Assembly (NCBI GenBank): GCA_020632195.1
Contig: JACKGA010000005.1
Span: 1 to 45,433 of the forward strand
DNA from: Candidatus Nomurabacteria bacterium
GTDB taxonomy: Bacteria > Patescibacteriota > Minisyncoccia > Phycocordibacterales > UBA1006
Reading direction: 5' to 3'
DNA length: 45,433 bases
In this document: in pieces, positions 5,122 through 12,870 of the stretch
How positions within the stretch are numbered: the first letter of the stretch is position 1
Layout: every line of letters begins with the position of its first letter
The notes under the pieces: model-generated
What the model was told of the DNA's origin: nothing
Database searches by the model: none
What the model saw: the letters and a program-made list of their open reading frames with translations, nothing else
Translations under genes and position numbers: made by a program

Positions 5122-7257
5122 ATGAAACAGCCTGATCAAAATTCTTTTAATAATCAATCTTTTAGGGAAGATCTTCGTTCTGAAATTCCAGAAAATGTTA
5201 GGAATATACTCGATTACTATGCTTCCCAAAAAAAGAAAGAGGAAGGACTTCAAGATAACAACATTGAAGCACGTGAAAATCTTTATCCAGAATTAGCATA
5301 TGATCCTTATAAAAACCCTTTGGATCTTTTTTATGAAATCATGAGTTCGGGAGTAGATGATGCATCGACAGACATTCTTTATGCACTTAAAGATATGCCA
5401 GAGAATTTCTCTCAACTTAGCTCTCAAGAACTGGAAGAAAAGCTACAAACCGCAAGGGGCATACAAGAAAGAAAACTCAATGAGGCATATACGATTTTAG
5501 AAACAAGGATTGTAAGTGGAAACCCCCAAGAGCAATATAATGCTTTTCACGACCTCTTGAGTATGGAGTTTGGTAAATTTGAAAAGCTTTTAGAAAATCC
5601 TAACCTTACTGGATTAAAAGATTTCTTTGAGAACCTCGACACTACTCAGGGGGCCTATTATTACCAACGTTATTTTGAGACATATCAGCATGAGGGTAAA
5701 TTGAAGTATAAAGAGAAAGTAGCATTATCAAACGGTGGCGAGCTCCAGAGCTGGTCAAGCTATCCTTCTACAATAAAGATATATACAAATCCACAAGAGA
5801 AAAGGAAACAATACGAGCTCCGTGAGCGTTATGATGAACTTACTCACAACGCTCATGATAAGAGTCACTCGAGCCCAGCTTTAGAAAAAATAATACGTGC
5901 ACAATGGAATTTGAAATCAAAAATAAAAGATACCCCTATCACATCACAGCGGCTAGGCCTTGTTACAGAAGTGGACCAACAAGATATCAAAGATTATGTT
6001 GAAATCTTACTTTCGCGTATAGGCAATGATATTGAGTCTGACTTTAATTTTAAGCTTAATGAGCTCCCTCTTGATCTTGGTATTCAATTTATTAATTTCA
6101 TTAAACATGCAACTAAAGAAAAAGTTGATCGTACCCAAGTCCTTTCTCAACAACATGGTAAGTATTTTATTCATACCTTCCTCTCCCTCGCCCACGGTGG
6201 TCCTGAAATGGGAGAAAAAATCCTCGAACTCGGCGAACAACTACCACCGGAAACCGCACAAAAAATATTCAATAAATACGCAGAGCTGGTCGATCGTGTT
6301 AATGAGGTATTGGAATTCACCAAAAATGGATTCAAACAGGAGCTCCAGACACAACCAGAGATGATCAATGATATCCAACAGACCCTCTATAAACGTGGCG
6401 TTGCATTACTCGATAACTTCTATCAGGACATACAATCCAGTCAGGATATTGAATCGTTAGCCACCGAGATCGAACAACAACTGGATCGCATTAATGCTGA
6501 CACCGTAACCACATTGGCAGTTTTTAAACATGCTCTACGCGAAGGTCACCAGTTACCTCTGGAGGATATCAAGGGTGCAACATTCGAATCCCACCATCCA
6601 TCAGATTTTACCCCAGAACAGATTGCAGAAATGCGTGATATCTATGAAACCAATTGGGAGCATTATTCAGATAAAGCATTTGTGCAGCATATTCTTAAAT
6701 ATTTTGATACGGCTTTTGATACATCAAACACATTACAGAACACCCTGTACACCTTTGAAAAAGATAACCATATCCAAGCTTTTATTCGATTCGAGGAAAA
6801 AGAGCCTGGTACACGATATGCTAGCGCACTGAATGTAGATGAAAATATGCAAGGACTTGCGCTGGGGGAAGCTATGATGGATGAGGCACTCAAAAAAGAA
6901 GCCACATCCTCAGTGCTCAAAGCTGTCTGTGATCCAACGAGCCGCTCAAATATGCGTTACTTTGAAATGGGATTTATAGCAACAGGATTTACGGATGATA
7001 ACCCACCAGTCTTCAAGATTGAATGGGATAATGAAAAGAATACACACTATCGTACCAAAGCTATGCCCATAAACGAGATTTTGCATCTCTCTCCCTCAGA
7101 AAAAACTATCGAAGTACACTCATCTGCGAGCCTACAAGAGCTTCATCAAGGATTTCCTGAGAATAAAGTACTCACCCGATGCTTCCAGGATCCTGTGGGG
7201 AGAGGAGATTGGTATGCTGTCTATGAAGATGCGGTCACACGTTCAGAAGATTCATAG
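5122..7257 (+). CDS. Large hypothetical protein with C-terminal GNAT-like domain
   Basis: 711 aa; IQAFIRFE...SALNVDENMQGLALGEAMM resembles GNAT motif A, followed by YFEMGF. Confidence 0.65.
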   Translation: MKQPDQNSFNNQSFREDLRSEIPENVRNILDYYASQKKKEEGLQDNNIEARENLYPELAYDPYKNPLDLFYEIMSSGVDDASTDILYALKDMPENFSQLSSQELEEKLQTARGIQERKLNEAYTILETRIVSGNPQEQYNAFHDLLSMEFGKFEKLLENPNLTGLKDFFENLDTTQGAYYYQRYFETYQHEGKLKYKEKVALSNGGELQSWSSYPSTIKIYTNPQEKRKQYELRERYDELTHNAHDKSHSSPALEKIIRAQWNLKSKIKDTPITSQRLGLVTEVDQQDIKDYVEILLSRIGNDIESDFNFKLNELPLDLGIQFINFIKHATKEKVDRTQVLSQQHGKYFIHTFLSLAHGGPEMGEKILELGEQLPPETAQKIFNKYAELVDRVNEVLEFTKNGFKQELQTQPEMINDIQQTLYKRGVALLDNFYQDIQSSQDIESLATEIEQQLDRINADTVTTLAVFKHALREGHQLPLEDIKGATFESHHPSDFTPEQIAEMRDIYETNWEHYSDKAFVQHILKYFDTAFDTSNTLQNTLYTFEKDNHIQAFIRFEEKEPGTRYASALNVDENMQGLALGEAMMDEALKKEATSSVLKAVCDPTSRSNMRYFEMGFIATGFTDDNPPVFKIEWDNEKNTHYRTKAMPINEILHLSPSEKTIEVHSSASLQELHQGFPENKVLTRCFQDPVGRGDWYAVYEDAVTRSEDS

Positions 7258-8048
7258 AGTGCGTAAAACATACTTTTGAAGAGATCGCTAATACGTTTAT
7301 CCTCAATAATAACCCCAATAAGATTTTCATCTGAAACGGTGATAATACCGACCTTATTATCATAAATCTGTAGAGCCGCCTCAACGGTGTTGAGAGGACT
7401 TTTTGAATATCTGAAGTCGGTTACTTTCAGATACTGTGGGTCGCGACGAGAGCGCTCATCAAACCAGGTGCGTGCATAGATATTTTCAAGGATAAGAATC
7501 TTTTTCTTGATCCCAATAATCTCTCGATCGCGCACATAGCGATCATTGATATCTTTGAAGTGTTTTTCTACCACCTCAATATCAAGATAGGTGAGCACCT
7601 CTTCTTTGGTTTTCAGGGTGTCTTTCAGTACTTCCCAGATTCCCTCTTTTCCTTCAAAGAATCGTACATTAGGCTTTCCTGTTGCAAGATTGAAATCTGA
7701 TGCCATATTTCCTAGATCTCGTTCTATTTCCAACTCTGCCTTTGCGAGTTTTTGTTTTTGCTTTTCGAGTACCTTGGTGAGATAGGAGGGATGTTTTGCT
7801 TCAAAATATGCTGGCGAACCCTCTTCATCTATTTTTTCAATAACCCCCTTTTCTAGGAGCTTATCCAGCCCACGATAGGTAAGTACTCGTGAAATACCCG
7901 TTCCTATGCCAATTTCAGAGGCTTTTTTACTATGATTTTTTAATACATATTCATAGATTTTTACTTCATCTATACCAAATCCTAAATCTAATAATGTTTC
8001 AGAATACGATAATTCTTGTTTTTTTGATGTGTTTTGACTATTTTTCAT
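7221..8048 (-). CDS. TrmB family transcriptional regulator
   Basis: N-terminal wHTH (LLDLGFGIDEVKIY...ISRVLTYRGLDKLLEKG) and C-terminal PLD-like effector domain (VRFFEGKEGI, IYDNKV). Confidence 0.85.
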   Translation of the reverse strand: MKNSQNTSKKQELSYSETLLDLGFGIDEVKIYEYVLKNHSKKASEIGIGTGISRVLTYRGLDKLLEKGVIEKIDEEGSPAYFEAKHPSYLTKVLEKQKQKLAKAELEIERDLGNMASDFNLATGKPNVRFFEGKEGIWEVLKDTLKTKEEVLTYLDIEVVEKHFKDINDRYVRDREIIGIKKKILILENIYARTWFDERSRRDPQYLKVTDFRYSKSPLNTVEAALQIYDNKVGIITVSDENLIGVIIEDKRISDLFKSMFYALYESSERVTASS

Positions 8049-8056
8049 ATATTTAT

Positions 8057-8075
8057 TGTAACAAAAGTAGTTACA
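8057..8075. promoter_or_regulatory. Palindromic operator candidate over the trmB promoter
   Basis: TGTAAC-N7-GTTACA overlapping the minus-strand TGtTACAAT -10 element. Confidence 0.5.
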
Positions 8076-8147
8076 TAATGCAACTATATACACATAATAA
8101 CTATATAATACAACACTTCTTTGTAATATTAGTATGTTATTTAAAGC

Positions 8148-8175
8148 TTTACAAAAGATTTTAAAATGTTATAAT
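8148..8175 (+). promoter_or_regulatory. Sigma70 promoter facing the island
   Basis: TTTACA (8148-8153), 16-nt spacer, extended TGnTATAAT (8167-8175); predicted TSS about 8182. Confidence 0.75.
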
Positions 8176-8181
8176 TACATC

Positions 8182-8915
8182 AAGAAAAGTTAAGGAAGTC
8201 AAAAGACAGATTTAACAGAGAGAGGTTCATTACAACAAATCAATCGACATCCCCTGTTGGGAGATGAAGGTTCCGCTTCTCGCGATATCATATACCGATT
8301 GGAACCCGGTCACTAGATATGTCGAGCACCTATCGAGCCTGTTGGCGTTCGAGATAGGCAGAAGAAGCCTAACGGTTCTGAAGAGATCCGCTGAGTATCA
8401 GGACTAACCCCCCTGATAACCAGAAATCTCTTCATAACCCCGGACCACGTTCGGGACAAACTGAGAGAGGAGAAACACATGTAAATATAGACACATGAAA
8501 AATACTTACCGAAAGAATAGTGGAGAGATAGGTAATAGAGAACAAACTTATACTTTGAAGTCCCTGTAGATGTATTACCCCCACTGTTCTCTCGGGAAGA
8601 GAGAGATTCAAAAAAGTTCACTGTTAATTAAAAAACATCAGATTCATATCTTTGTTGAGGTCAGAAAGTGACGTTAGAGGATATGAAGAAGCTGAATACC
8701 ATATGCGTGATGATCATCACAATACTTCTGGAGAGAGGTTTGGTTGTGATGGTCACCGCATACCCAGACATATATCATGATGGTACACATGAGACTCTTT
8801 GACTTAGATCCTGAAATATATTCAGGACAAGAGAGCCTCTTTGCTATCAATAACGTGATACAGAGAGGCTCATAGTCCCCGCCTACGCGAGGATAAACAG
8901 TGAACCTCTCTCAAT
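8182..8915 (+). ncRNA. Candidate large structured non-coding RNA, about 730 nt
   Basis: No + strand ORF of 60 aa or more; closing stem 8218-8229/8901-8912 (12 bp perfect); at least 11 internal helices with G-U pairs; upstream promoter. Confidence 0.7.
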
Positions 8916-8977
8916 ACACTCTTATTTAATAAGTGAAAGCGTTTTGTTTGTTTTATCAATGTGTCTGGGTATGCGGT
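8755..8977. repeat. Perfect 16-bp inverted repeat, 191-nt spacer
   Basis: ACCGCATACCCAGACA (8755-8770) vs TGTCTGGGTATGCGGT (8962-8977). Confidence 0.9.
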
Positions 8978-8990
8978 AGCAATATCGCAT

Positions 8991-9045
8991 GTTGCATTCA
9001 TATCATTGATATTTCACAAAGAGATATTAGTGATATGAATGCAAC
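8991..9045 (+). promoter_or_regulatory. 25-bp hairpin containing the ATG at 9035
   Basis: 8991-9005/9031-9045 15 bp perfect, plus 10 bp with G-U pairs, loop ACAAA. Confidence 0.75.
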
Positions 9046-9193
9046 TTCACTAAAAACCGTTACGCTTCCGGGCGTAACGGTAGTTGGTAAGATTGATCTT
9101 TCTAAATTTACCACTAAAGGTGGTAAGAGAAGAAAGAGAAGCTTCAGAATTCGACCAGCCACAAATGTGCTGGGAGATTTCTTGAAGAAGTAA
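9035..9193 (+). CDS. Small basic peptide (52 aa)
   Basis: MNATSLKTVTLPGVTVVGKIDLSKFTTKGGKRRKRSFRIRPATNVLGDFLKK; the ORF-track GTG extension runs through structured RNA and looks non-coding. Confidence 0.55.
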   Translation: MNATSLKTVTLPGVTVVGKIDLSKFTTKGGKRRKRSFRIRPATNVLGDFLKK

Positions 9194-9237
9194 TCTTACC
9201 AAAATCGGCTCCCGCATCCTCGGGAGGATAATGATGT

Positions 9238-9459
9238 GTGATCCTGAACAATAGTAAGGAAACACACATAATGGGTCTGGTGTGCCTCTTCGCCAGCTGC
9301 AGGGTTGCAGAAAAAGAAGAGGCAGGGTATCGGTATCTGATCAATGGTTATGATCGAGATACCACTCTTATTCACTTCATCAGTCATGGTGGGGTGATTG
9401 GGGTTTTCCCAATGTATGTCCCTGTAGACATTAAATGGCAGCGCAAAAAAGTAATCTGA
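9238..9459 (+). CDS. Small hypothetical protein
   Basis: 73 aa ORF after GGGAGG held in a CTCCC/GGGAG hairpin; start uncertain. Confidence 0.35.
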   Translation: MILNNSKETHIMGLVCLFASCRVAEKEEAGYRYLINGYDRDTTLIHFISHGGVIGVFPMYVPVDIKWQRKKVI

Positions 9460-9533
9460 AGCGAGATACAGATTGCAGGTTTTTAACTGGCGAGCGTATC
9501 ATGATTCTCTTGGAATGAATGATGTGATCAATA

Positions 9534-9863
9534 GTGGCACAATTACCTGAAAATATTGTGTTTCAAATCCTTAAATTTAAGGAGATGAAAGCAGAAAAAA
9601 TTTTACTTTGGGCGCAAATGCAAAGCACCGGAGTTGATTTTTCTGTAAACGGGATAACCTTCCAAATCTCTTACCTTGGTAAGGGATTCTGGAAGAGGTA
9701 TTTCCACAAGGGTTCACACCCTACTCGTGGAAATGTTTCTCAAACAGAAATGCAGGACGCTTTGGATAAAGCGACTACATTTACTCTGTATGAGGGGCAA
9801 AAACCTCATGAGGTTTCCCGTCAGGAATTCGAGCAGATGGTGGCATCTGTTTTTAATTTCTGA
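9534..9863 (+). CDS. Hypothetical protein
   Basis: 109 aa, natural composition, co-oriented with the island; start uncertain. Confidence 0.55.
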   Translation: MAQLPENIVFQILKFKEMKAEKILLWAQMQSTGVDFSVNGITFQISYLGKGFWKRYFHKGSHPTRGNVSQTEMQDALDKATTFTLYEGQKPHEVSRQEFEQMVASVFNF

Positions 9864-10126: not shown

Positions 10127-11200
10127 ATGGACGTAACAAAAATCCCGTCCATCCTTGAGGAAGGATTCGTATTCACCGACGAGGTGAGCAGAATTCTTTC
10201 GCTCGGAATGGGCGGACGGAAAAACGTCATCATTTTCGGACCTGGCGGTCATGCCAAGTCCGAGATGGTGCAGGCCATTGTCCGCGGCCTCGGACTTGAG
10301 TCCGAAACCTTCTTCCAATTTTTTGGAGAAGGAATGGACGAGTCCAGACTGTTCGGAGGTCTGGATTTCAAAAAACTGGAGGAAGAAAAAGTACTCCAGT
10401 ACTTTCCCGAAAAAAGTTTCTTGAACAGCCGCGTTGCGGTGTTCGAGGAGCTCTTTGATGCGCCAGCTTCCGTGTTGTTGGCGCTCAAAGATTGTTTGAC
10501 AGCACGGGAACTGCGCAATGGGGCTCAACGCTTCCCCATGCGCACGGAGGTGATAATATGCTTGACCAACAAGCAGCCCTCCGAAATTTCAGAGCTTGGG
10601 CCTGCTGCCCATGCGCTGATCGAGCGTTTTCCATTGCAGTATAATCTGCAGTGGAAGGATTATTCCGCAAAGAGCTATACTCAGCTCTTTGAAAAGGTTG
10701 CGCCTCGCTTGGGCGGACCGATCCTAAACGGATTTAAAGCAGTTTTGGCCGAAATCCTGGCCAAAGCTACGGCAGAAGGTAATTTTGTCTCACCGAGGAC
10801 TGCGGTCCACGCATATCAGGTGTGTCAAACATCTGCGAAACTGCGTGATGCAGACCATGTGGGACAAGAAGATCTGGTAGATCTCCGCTATCTGCCAGGT
10901 TTGGAAGGGTTGGCTTCAACCATTGAAGCTGACCTGAAAGCCGCCATGGAACGGGCGGCAGCGGAAAAAAACCTTCATACAGCGCAGGAGGAATTTGATG
11001 TGCTGAAAAACGAGGTCGAAAGGGAGACCTCGCCTATCAAGATTCTTCAGGCGGTAAAACGTCTGAGCGGCTTGCAGGATAAACTCGCAGAAGTGCGAGT
11101 TCCTGATGGCTTGACTGATAAGCGCAATAAAATGCGCGATGCGGTTTCTGGTCTGATAACCTCAGGCCAGCAGAGAGCCATCGACAGCACGCGCATTTAG
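10127..11200 (+). CDS. MoxR-family AAA+ ATPase, RavA-like
   Basis: Walker A GPGGHAKS (RavA-type AKS), Walker B VAVFEE, sensor ICLTN, ALIERFPL; C-terminal coiled coil. Confidence 0.85.
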   Translation: MDVTKIPSILEEGFVFTDEVSRILSLGMGGRKNVIIFGPGGHAKSEMVQAIVRGLGLESETFFQFFGEGMDESRLFGGLDFKKLEEEKVLQYFPEKSFLNSRVAVFEELFDAPASVLLALKDCLTARELRNGAQRFPMRTEVIICLTNKQPSEISELGPAAHALIERFPLQYNLQWKDYSAKSYTQLFEKVAPRLGGPILNGFKAVLAEILAKATAEGNFVSPRTAVHAYQVCQTSAKLRDADHVGQEDLVDLRYLPGLEGLASTIEADLKAAMERAAAEKNLHTAQEEFDVLKNEVERETSPIKILQAVKRLSGLQDKLAEVRVPDGLTDKRNKMRDAVSGLITSGQQRAIDSTRI

Positions 11201-11520
11201 CCGTGCTTGTCCAATGTGAGTTTATTTCTTCTCATTCTCTGCTTTGCGAAGCATGACGCAGAACAAAAGAAATTATTTGTCCCCGTATGCTCCACACAAA
11301 ATGGGTTTGTTGTGAGAATAATGGAGAGCCACGAACAGAGCAGACTGTTCATAAGGGGTTTAGGGTTAAAAACTAATTTTGCCGAGTAGAAATATTCGGC
11401 ATCCTTATTCAGATTTTCAAAATTTCTATTAGAGAGATTGAAAGTTTGATAGGGAGCAACGAAACTGCCCAAGCAATTTTGCAAAAGAAGTTTCAACATC
11501 GGCCAAGGAGGGCCGTCGAT
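11201..11520 (+). promoter_or_regulatory. Structured 320-nt spacer between AAA+ and VWA genes
   Basis: TGCCGAGTA-GAAA-TATTCGGCA hairpin, GAACAG/CTGTTC stem, SD AAGGAG in the loop of a GGCC/GGCC stem. Confidence 0.5.
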
Positions 11521-12870
11521 ATGTCGCAAACATTTCGAACCGCTCCTCCCGCGCATTATATATCTCCCTCGAAAGAGGAGATGCGGGAGGTAGCAGAAAA
11601 AATCGGCCTATCCAAGTTCTCACCTGACTTGGCGGCCGATTTGGCAAATATTGCAGCTGGTGGAAAAATACTTCCGCCATCTGCATATAAAGAGCAGGTG
11701 AAAAAAGTTGTCGAGGAGAAGCTCCCAGCTCCCGACAGTTCTGGTTACTGGGAGCTGGCGAACGGCAGTTATACTAACTCTAAAAGCAAAAAGCTTGCGG
11801 ATGCGGTAGAACAAGCCGTTCGCTACCACCAAAACGTTTGCGATTTTTTGCAGACGGTAGAGGTGGAAAATTTGCCTGGTTCGACTCCGCTCGAACAGGC
11901 GATGAATTGTCTGAAACTACTCAGTAAAATGAGTGGTGGTTCAGGCGAAGGTAGTGGAGAATCCCTGCCCATATTCGCCGAGAAGGCGGAGCAGGCAGGG
12001 CAAAAAGTTAATCAAGTTTTGGATCAGGTTGAAAGCCTGACTCAGGATGAGAAAGACCTTTTGGATCCGGATCAGGACGCTGGTTCGGGTGCAAGCGAGG
12101 GTGCTGATGACGATCAGCAAAAAATGTCCCTTGCCGAGGACATGCTGAATGGAAAGGATATTATGCTTTCCATAAGCAGAAATCTCGACAAGCTCACGCG
12201 GATGCAAGTTCGCAAGAGCAAAAAGCAGGAAGCGGATCCTGCTGGGGACGATATCCGCAAGCGCCCAATCCGTCACTTGGGCGAACTCAACAGGATTGAA
12301 AAGTCCTATTGGGGAATTCGCCAGCAGTCAAAGAGTTACTTTGACTATCTGGCCGTTACCGGAGGCATCCCCGTCCGGGAACGAGTGACGACCATTGAAA
12401 AAAAGCAGTTGTTGTATATCATTATCGACTGCTCCGGATCAATGGGTGAGGGGAAAAGAATCTTTAAAGCCGGGGGGATTCTGATGAACCGCTTAAAAGC
12501 GGTAATTGCCGGCGAGGCGGAGCTGTACGTCCGCCTATTTGATACCGAGCTGAAGCAGGAGTACCATGCCTGTACACCAGCAGAAGCAAAAGAGCTAATC
12601 AAGCACTTTACCGAGAAAAACTATTCGGGCGGAAGCACGGATATCTCGGGCTGTGCGAGAGCAGCTCAGAAGCGTATCGAAGAAATTATTGCCAACGGAG
12701 CCACCTATCGTCCGGAACTGGTGGTCATTACCGATGGCGATGACAGTATAAAACTTACAACAAAGGATTTTCCGGGCACGAAGATGCATGCCTTTGTTGT
12801 CGACACAGCCAATAACGCGCTTTGCGAGATTGCGAAAGCAACTGGTGGCGTTGGCGTGAACCAGATGTAA
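11521..12870 (+). CDS. VWA domain protein (ViaA/CoxE-like partner of MoxR)
   Basis: Complete MIDAS: IIIDCSGSM, GGSTDIS, VVITDG; start at ATG 11521 after AAGGAGG. Confidence 0.85.
   Translation: MSQTFRTAPPAHYISPSKEEMREVAEKIGLSKFSPDLAADLANIAAGGKILPPSAYKEQVKKVVEEKLPAPDSSGYWELANGSYTNSKSKKLADAVEQAVRYHQNVCDFLQTVEVENLPGSTPLEQAMNCLKLLSKMSGGSGEGSGESLPIFAEKAEQAGQKVNQVLDQVESLTQDEKDLLDPDQDAGSGASEGADDDQQKMSLAEDMLNGKDIMLSISRNLDKLTRMQVRKSKKQEADPAGDDIRKRPIRHLGELNRIEKSYWGIRQQSKSYFDYLAVTGGIPVRERVTTIEKKQLLYIIIDCSGSMGEGKRIFKAGGILMNRLKAVIAGEAELYVRLFDTELKQEYHACTPAEAKELIKHFTEKNYSGGSTDISGCARAAQKRIEEIIANGATYRPELVVITDGDDSIKLTTKDFPGTKMHAFVVDTANNALCEIAKATGGVGVNQM

Follow-up and report, generated by a model that had tools for sequence, protein, structure and literature searches.

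What is encoded in about 1.4 kb of DNA that contains no long open reading frame (ORF) and separates the start of a minus-strand gene for a TrmB-type regulator from the first credible plus-strand gene? This question is raised by a 45,433-nt stretch of a Candidatus Nomurabacteria bacterium (contig JACKGA010000005.1, our contig C5), which was analysed over its whole length and is called the window here. The genome is 576 kb at 74% completeness, and its closest public relatives carry the label Candidatus Paceibacterota, within Patescibacteria, the Candidate Phyla Radiation (CPR). The initial annotation, which was made from the window sequence, had placed a large ornate non-coding RNA (ncRNA) at 8182–8915. 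We found that this region is very probably a real, heavily folded ncRNA gene of ~0.75 kb. It was further considered probable that 8182–8915 is the body, closed by a helix named P1, of a structured ncRNA that spans ~8181 to ~8955 (~775 nt), is transcribed from a promoter at 8148–8175 and belongs to a Patescibacteria family outside Rfam.

Coding potential, fold and strand of the 8182–8915 region

The promoter scan identified a sigma-70 promoter (TTTACA-16-TGtTATAAT) at 8148–8175 on the plus strand, with a score of 11/12 and an extended −10. The ~750 nt facing this promoter hold no credible ORF. Under translation table 11, no plus-strand ORF of 60 aa or more was present between 8182 and 8932, and table 25 gave no long frame over 8182–8915, adding just a 61-aa and a 70-aa plus-strand frame that read through TGA. 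The indels that distinguish the window from its sole close relative, G032 (the same as L016), are not multiples of three, and this together with the lack of an ORF indicated that the interval is non-coding. The minimum free energy (MFE) of the plus strand of 8182–8915 computed with RNAfold was −249.8 kcal/mol as compared with −174 ± 8.5 kcal/mol in dinucleotide shuffles (z = −8.95), and none of the 20 shuffles was equally stable. The minus strand was likewise stable (z = −8.0), as any helix-rich DNA would be, and therefore the energy alone cannot pick the strand. The plus strand was taken as the RNA strand because the listed helices include at least eight G-U pairs, the promoter points in this direction, and the model of the family hairpin described below scored 88 bits on the plus strand and 32 bits on the minus strand.

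Thus, the reading given in the initial annotation held for the near-consensus promoter and the ORF-free plus strand behind it, and the fold withstood the comparison with dinucleotide shuffles that had been proposed there as a check. All 13 helices listed there exist as standard or G-U pairs, the ends pair perfectly as a 12-bp closing helix (8218–8229/8901–8912), and the recurring CUGUUG loops (8254–8259 and 8339–8344) and three copies of ACACAUG were both found. The use of G-U pairs, which it had taken as a sign of selection on RNA, became a part of the case for the plus strand.

The RNA family and the anatomy of its member in the window

The most conserved hairpin of the window RNA, which was named H, is shared by more than 55 loci from Paceibacterota and lineages related to them; it keeps its strand and occurs in one copy per genome. 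The 711-aa protein encoded upstream of the RNA was used as an anchor, and 15 genome loci and 39 metagenome loci were fetched with it. A covariance model of H alone (R1) matched the plus strand at the expected place, downstream of the gene for this GNAT protein, in 11 of the 15 genome loci and 22 of the 39 metagenome loci, and most of the misses were contigs ending short of the site. RNA-only searches detected the hairpin in 7 of 401 genomes of the class (six of them further ones) and in 19 of 401 genomes of the order (18 further), the latter belonging to 19 different genera with one copy each. A second model, R2, was made from 31 sequences that excluded the window and its nearest relatives L016, L030 and L017; it recovered 8370–8443 of the window on the plus strand (48.9 bits, E = 2e-9), and the search at phylum level with this model found 3 of 401 genomes. 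The resulting prevalence of ~5% of the genomes in the order of the window is a lower bound, because just the top 12 candidates per genome were scored and the filters were strict. BLAST against 55 genomes of the window's family gave collinear matches to the window RNA in G032 and G017, and both loci are syntenic with the window, with homologues of both genes upstream of the RNA. When 16 order-level loci were added to these 55 genomes, the only further members of the window subfamily were G032 and, partly, G017.

Base pairing in H was examined across 39 distinct sequences. In this alignment (A6), which was fitted to the model and thus inflates pairing, 92.8% of cells were paired and 15 of 19 pairs had double changes. 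Shuffles gave 36.8 doubly changed cells and sliding of the partner column no more than 17, as compared with the 126 observed; the shuffle counts are not P values or probabilities, here or in the test that follows. As a structure-blind control, the 5' domains of 16 main-subfamily members were aligned with MAFFT and folded by RNAalifold. This gave 73 pairs in 14 helices with 92.6% of cells paired, and 35 of the 73 pairs were doubly changed, where shuffles had 14.1 such pairs and slid columns no more than 12. Both the MAFFT alignment and R2, which excludes the window, are free of the model-fitting bias. The 3' module of the main subfamily holds more covarying hairpins, one of them with an invariant 14-nt loop (AGGAGAGAGRCYUG). 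The covariation of P1 across the family was judged by eye.

Known RNA families were searched with cmscan and Rfam 15. At the gathering thresholds, the whole window gave tRNAs only. A sensitive scan of 8000–9600 at E ≤ 10 found no GOLLD, ROOL, OLE, HEARO, raiA or other relevant family; 11 related loci had none of these large-ncRNA families at gathering, and the RNA of L043, a representative of the main subfamily, had no match at E ≤ 1. No account of this RNA emerged from full-text literature searches or from a preprint check. Selection at the RNA level, the distribution and the gene neighbourhood of the family were established in this way, and by these sequence comparisons the loci make up a family of large RNAs of roughly 400–900 nt, absent from Rfam, in Patescibacteria (Paceibacterota and neighbours). 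The initial annotation could not match the RNA to GOLLD, ROOL, OLE, RNase P, tmRNA or intron cores, and had suggested that this CPR genome carries a large ncRNA that is either undescribed or divergent. The suggestion is borne out by the fold, the covarying homologues and the empty Rfam scans, and the homologues conserve the pairings and no reading frame, as seen from the non-triplet indels and the strong covariation.

The features common to the family are an extended −10 promoter, a leader motif, a closing helix on GUUC/GAAC, hairpin H and a strand-specific excess of GAGAG. The promoter TTGACA-N17-TGCTATACT is almost invariant and was present in ~30 of 38 loci, 37–620 nt upstream of H. The leader, CAAGAG(A)GUUAAGGAAG, lies 5–6 nt past a strong extended −10; the RNAs of the main subfamily start with CAAGAGUUAAGGAAG at this distance, and in the window the promoter is followed by tacat-CAAGAAAAGUUAAGGAAG in the same arrangement. 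The closing helix begins just past the leader (8218–8229/8901–8912 in the window). Its GUUC/GAAC core recurs across the family, with UGAACUUUGAAAA or GAAGGAACU as the 3' partner in other members, and the 3' strand is placed either directly behind H or several hundred nt further on, the second arrangement being that of the window. The window hairpin recovered by R2 has the 3×2 internal loop with a 3' GAAAU and the YUNAACC loop of the family. From one lineage to another, peripheral domains have been exchanged, added or lost, and the RNA lengths range from ~400 nt (L021) to ~900 nt. The RNAs of the main subfamily close with a hairpin, a spacer of 4–7 nt and GUUUUUCAUUUUU. The 5' blocks of the main subfamily (the CCUAG/CUAGG hairpin, the GUUUGC/GCAAAC helix and others) are absent from both the window and G032, and therefore these two were assigned to a divergent subfamily.

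The family RNAs contain 9.75 GAGAG pentamers per kb versus 1.22 per kb in the flanks (about 8-fold), and 0.71 CUCUC per kb. With this ~14 to 1 excess of GAGAG over CUCUC, many of the GAGAG tracts cannot sit in Watson-Crick helices with a perfect complement. Four of the 44 GAGAGAG heptamers of the genome lie in 8182–8915. A role of the GA-rich or (AG)n tracts as sites of a CsrB/RsmZ-type CsrA sponge or an Hfq-binding sponge was rejected because neither CsrA (PF02599, above cut-off) nor Hfq (PF17209) was detected in any of eight RNA-bearing genomes in which the positive controls worked.

The promoter and the elements of the window RNA are as follows.

8148–8175, plus strand: the sigma-70 promoter described above.
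8181–8215, plus strand: predicted 5' end of the RNA with the conserved leader motif CAAGAAAAGUUAAGGAAG and a 5' hairpin at 8189–8215 (hairpin in the MFE fold).
8218–8229, plus strand: 5' strand of the closing helix P1, GAGAGAGGUUCA; 12 bp with 8901–8912.
8248–8266, plus strand: hairpin CAUCCCC-UGUU-GGGAGAUG, a window-specific tip that is lacking in G032.
8269–8306, plus strand: helix GGUUCC/GGAACC round a 26-nt loop; kept in G032, with the outer pair changed from G-C to C-G.
8329–8358, plus strand: helix CCUAUC/GAUAGG with an inner CUGUUG loop region; three pairs doubly changed in G032 and still paired.
8379–8434, plus strand: hairpin H, the family hallmark; model matches span 8370–8443 (R1, 88.2 bits; R2, score as above).
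8439–8455, plus strand: hairpin CCCGGA-CCACG-UUCGGG, a window-specific insertion (MFE fold, G032 comparison).
8587–8605, plus strand: hairpin UUCUCUC-GGGAA-GAGAGAG in a window-specific insertion (MFE fold, G032 comparison).
8644–8686, plus strand: helix UCAUAUCUUU/GAGGAUAUGA round a conserved GGUCAGRAAGUGACGUUAG; five pairs differ from G032, all still paired.
8712–8754, plus strand: long hairpin GAUCAUCACAAU.../...GUUGUGAUGGUC with an inner stem 8724–8729/8734–8739; shorter in G032, and covariation does not confirm it.
8789–8873, plus strand: three-way junction, AUGAG/CUCAU closing the arms 8809–8815/8821–8827 and 8830–8843/8861–8871 (GAGCCUCUUUG/CAGAGAGGCUC) (MFE fold).
8901–8912, plus strand: 3' strand of P1, UGAACCUCUCUC (MFE fold, G032 comparison).
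8917–8954, plus strand: probable 3' end, read in the sequence as a weak AU-rich hairpin (8917–8935), a 6-nt spacer and the U-rich tract UUUUGUUUGUUUU (8942–8954).

The whole window RNA could be aligned to G032. Compensatory changes keep four helices, namely 8269–8274/8301–8306, 8329–8334/8353–8358, the inner stem 8396–8402/8412–8418 and 8644–8653/8677–8686, and the hairpins at 8248–8266, 8439–8455, 8587–8605 and 8809–8827 are private to the window as insertions relative to G032. This alignment did not confirm 8712–8754, 8724–8739 and 8836–8868. Hairpin 8248–8266 looks topologically equivalent to a covarying helix of the main subfamily, CACCUCU/AGAGAGUG (helix 6). P1 retains 11 of its 12 pairs in G032 with no base changes, and in G017 it reads AGUUCU/AGAACU, with both end pairs changed compensatorily. 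The closing pairs of the three-way junction (8789–8793/8869–8873) are invariant in G032, and its GAGCCUC/GAGGCUC arm was seen there by eye; the last three bases of this arm compete with the closing helix. The 3' end was put near 8955 because the window shows a weaker version of the 3' layout of the main subfamily.

In hairpin H, an outer stem and the 3×2 internal loop are followed by a middle stem of 3 bp, an inner stem of 7 bp and the loop ACUAACCCC. A pseudoknot between the H loop (CUUAACC) and a 3' GGUUAAG was rejected, as this pairing had no covariation and the 3' segment has its pairing partner at another site. The H loop, which reads CUUAACCCA in many members and GACUAACCC at 8401–8409 in the window, is complementary to a universal 16S segment UGGGUUAAG(UC). 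Its pairing with the universal 16S segment GGGUUAAG was kept as no more than a weak lead, since the complementarity is lost in distant members with UGAACC loops. The assembly of the window has no 16S gene.

The following points weigh against this account of the window RNA. The subfamily of the window has two members, the window and one close relative, and most of its helices rest on these two sequences and thermodynamics. P1 is invariant there and so is uninformative for covariation. Only H, the leader motif and the core of P1 connect the window with the main subfamily, and the other ~600 nt are no more than putatively homologous.

Neighbouring genes and possible modes of action

Three features were mapped upstream of the RNA promoter.

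5122–7257, convergent: gene for the 711-aa helical and GNAT protein (AlphaFold, Foldseek).
7221–8048, minus strand, divergent from the RNA: gene for the TrmB-type regulator (PF01978, E = 4.7e-10).
8057–8075: operator-like palindrome TGTAAC-N7-GTTACA, which lies upstream of both the trmB-like start codon (by 9 nt) and the −35 of the RNA (by ~75 nt).

The palindrome at the same position in most of the related loci reads TTGTCAYGCAAATATGACAA and is a putative TrmB operator. A perfect DnaA box TGTGGATAA (reverse complement of TTATCCACA) lies beside the TrmB palindrome in eight loci (L017, L019, L022, L032, L040, L044, L060 and L072), at a fixed distance of about −97 from the RNA start; the window is without it. 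The GNAT-fusion proteins of the family loci are of 650–1000 aa. In the AlphaFold model of the window protein, with a predicted local distance difference test (pLDDT) score of 69, a long stretch of helices is joined to a GNAT fold at the C terminus. Foldseek against PDB matched only small GNAT acetyltransferases, for the C-terminal domain, and returned no match for the helical region, to which Pfam and NCBIfam also added nothing.

The layout of TrmB, palindrome and GNAT is present in the window and is frequent, not obligatory, in the family. Hairpin H was found in 33 of the ~41 loci that were anchored on the GNAT protein and had enough flank, and the TrmB gene in 12 of 22 loci anchored on the RNA. 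In ~9 of these 22 (~40%), neither TrmB nor GNAT was present within 5 kb. Thus, the protein is seldom found without the RNA and the RNA can stand alone. In L096 and L098 (G319 and G525), the RNA stands directly behind groES-groEL with no TrmB/GNAT neighbours, and rpsP lies between in L096.

The genes downstream of the RNA have no family in common across the loci. Of 33 loci, 28 have their first downstream ORF in the orientation of the RNA; in the remaining five, the ORF in question looks like a spurious frame. The RNA had been described in the initial annotation as heading an accessory island. It does start a co-oriented block whose genes differ per locus; its conserved partners, TrmB and GNAT, sit upstream. 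Behind the RNA in the window lie a MoxR-type AAA+ gene (10127–11200) and a vWA gene (11446–12870). The MoxR gene is 91% identical in L022, 86% in L055 and 70% in L018, while the GNAT proteins of these loci are only ~22–26% identical to that of the window, which suggests horizontal movement of the cassette. From these identities, the MoxR-vWA cassette appears to move between lineages and to land behind the RNA.

These findings together led us to consider, at about an even chance, that the gene makes a stable RNA which acts in trans as an RNA or as an RNA-protein particle. The RNA would accumulate as a stable and abundant molecule, its abundance being expected from the strength of the promoter. 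The divergent TrmB-type regulator would bind the palindromic operator, tune the divergent promoters and so set the expression of the RNA, and the neighbouring helical and GNAT protein would be the most likely protein partner. Action in trans is supported by downstream genes that share no family, by the occurrence of the RNA away from TrmB/GNAT and by the hairpin and U-rich element that end the main-subfamily RNA, and the GNAT partnership by the counts of 33 of ~41 and 12 of 22 given above. Weighing against the partnership, the link between the RNA and the GNAT protein is one of gene neighbourhood, and the loci with neither neighbour count here as well.

The strongest rival, which we regard as possible but rather unlikely, is that the RNA works in cis as a giant leader at the 5' side of a long transcript under TrmB control, generic for any cargo genes behind it, by processive antitermination, regulated read-through or stabilisation of its own transcript. 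The RNA may be the front of a longer transcript because the terminator scan made no call at 8917–8954 and the window has no canonical intrinsic terminator, because the sequence downstream of the RNA (8913–9440) is strongly structured as well, and because the first downstream ORF is mostly co-oriented. This last feature raises the odds of a leader, and a divergent regulator with its target promoter is a classical operon layout. EAR, the put element of phage HK022 and boxA of rRNA leaders are elements of ~70–120 nt tied to particular operon types. The family RNA resembles these antitermination and leader RNAs in its place right behind a strong promoter and at the head of a co-oriented gene block, but differs from them in its 400–900 nt, its 14 or more covarying helices and the unrelated cargo behind it. 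So many helices over such a length far exceed the needs of the known leader or antiterminator RNAs. Moreover, the cargo is heterogeneous, several loci have over 1 kb between the RNA and the next ORF, the RNA persists at loci without TrmB and GNAT, and the main-subfamily RNA is closed by a conserved hairpin and a U-rich element.

A more specific version of the trans-acting RNA, to which only a small probability was given, is a new class of large ornate RNA, confined to the ultra-small Patescibacteria, that forms a ribonucleoprotein (RNP) with the adjacent helical and GNAT protein, has a TrmB-type sensor as its switch and resides at a cassette-exchange slot for MoxR-vWA, a CRISPR array or orphan genes. 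In such an RNP, the RNA could be a scaffold or guide for the acetyltransferase, or its substrate, and might also mark or serve the exchange site for acquired cassettes.

That the gene is a diverged version of an RNA already known (RNase P, 6S, tmRNA, OLE, ROOL, GOLLD, HEARO or a group I/II intron) was judged very improbable. Its size class suits OLE, ROOL and GOLLD, and 6S RNA (RF00013) was not detected in four RNA-bearing genomes, which leaves that niche formally free. The window likewise had no RF00013 match, and a predicted fold that is multi-branched and not rod-like led us to reject 6S RNA. RNase P RNA was rejected as well: it has its own locus elsewhere in four of four genomes tested (RF00010 at G000:C6:20736–21090, 120.9 bits, and separate loci in G017, G032 and G175) and no match in the window. 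No relevant Rfam model matched the window or the main-subfamily representative at the thresholds given above, and a presence in only ~5% of the order shows that the family is not a housekeeping RNA.

Among the known large RNAs, OLE (RF01071; partners OapA/B/C) is similar in being a bacterial ncRNA of large size (~600 nt) with many helices and a narrow phylogenetic distribution, which occurs in single copy per genome, is kept beside specific protein genes and is thought to act as an RNP. The window RNA differs from OLE in having no sequence or structure match to it, in its phylum, in a much more variable periphery and in its TrmB/GNAT neighbours, which lie across a divergent promoter whereas the partners of OLE are in the same operon. 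The raiA motif RNA is ~200 nt long and occurs in Firmicutes and Actinobacteria. It has been described as an abundant, structured and free-standing bacterial ncRNA whose function is not known (PMC12968392); the window RNA is likewise structured and may be free-standing, but has no match to the raiA model and is three to four times larger. ROOL (RF03087) and GOLLD (RF01998), which form RNA-only homo-oligomers by cryo-EM (PMC12286853), the behaviour that the initial annotation had put forward as a possibility for the window RNA, share with it the size class, an ornate branched fold, a sporadic distribution and a function that is not known. Unlike them, the window family has no model match, was not found in phage records or viral contigs and is not beside tRNAs. 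A phage or plasmid origin was rejected, as blastn found no match in phage records, and 17 matches of an H 17-mer in viral contigs were attributed to chance because none fits the hairpin model.

Finally, the region being no RNA gene at all but a decayed gene, a mobile-element remnant or the scar of an integration hot spot with palindromes acting as DNA agrees with a variable 3' flank that receives horizontally moved cassettes (MoxR at 86–91% against GNAT at ~22–26% identity) and with a CRISPR array inserted there in one relative, but was considered highly improbable because each genome has one copy, the window has no repeat family or recurring junction hairpins, phage records and viral contigs gave no match, and the conserved promoter and the compensatory, G-U-tolerant and strand-specific covariation are RNA signatures.

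The family gains interest from the rarity of large, intricately folded bacterial RNAs, of which RNase P, group I/II introns, OLE, ROOL, GOLLD and raiA each exposed new biochemistry or architecture. The RNA is likely to be important to its host, since a non-coding gene of 0.4–0.9 kb with a strong promoter and 14 or more covarying helices is kept in genomes of 0.5–1 Mb that have little spare DNA. The promoter is among the strongest in the genome. The family now counts over 55 sequences, H provides a seed model for it and its gene neighbourhood is defined, and if the link with the GNAT protein is true, a new RNA-protein acetyltransferase system would be at hand.

Elements downstream of the RNA

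An integron-like array of junction hairpins behind the RNA was considered and rejected, as just one long hairpin (8991–9045) was present across 8–18 kb of the window. The start codon of a 52-aa basic peptide ORF (9035–9193; …LPGVTVVGKIDLSKF…KRRKRSF…) lies inside this 25-bp hairpin. The ORF was seen in just four loci of the window's own family and is conserved in G032 and G017, and the peptide is probably translated because its VGKIDL codons vary at synonymous third positions only. In L017, a CRISPR array with a 37-nt repeat GTCTCAATGCTGACTGTTCTGCAATGGTTTTTCTGAT (5637–6340) starts right after the GKIDL codons and truncates this peptide ORF behind the RNA.

The interval ~9209–9425 forms a second structured element (z = −4.8) with at least four helices that show compensatory changes against G032 by eye. 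Rfam gave no match to it, and a 73-aa ORF that it overlaps is probably spurious; the element may belong to the transcript of the window RNA or be an RNA in its own right. A further, conserved element, AAUCCGAAAAA…GCCAG…CGGAUAGGUAAGA, was found upstream of an ORF of 410–454 aa in L016 (~8080–8130), L023 (~7170–7215) and L041 (~2780–2830). It had no Rfam match at gathering and could be another leader or a riboswitch-like RNA.

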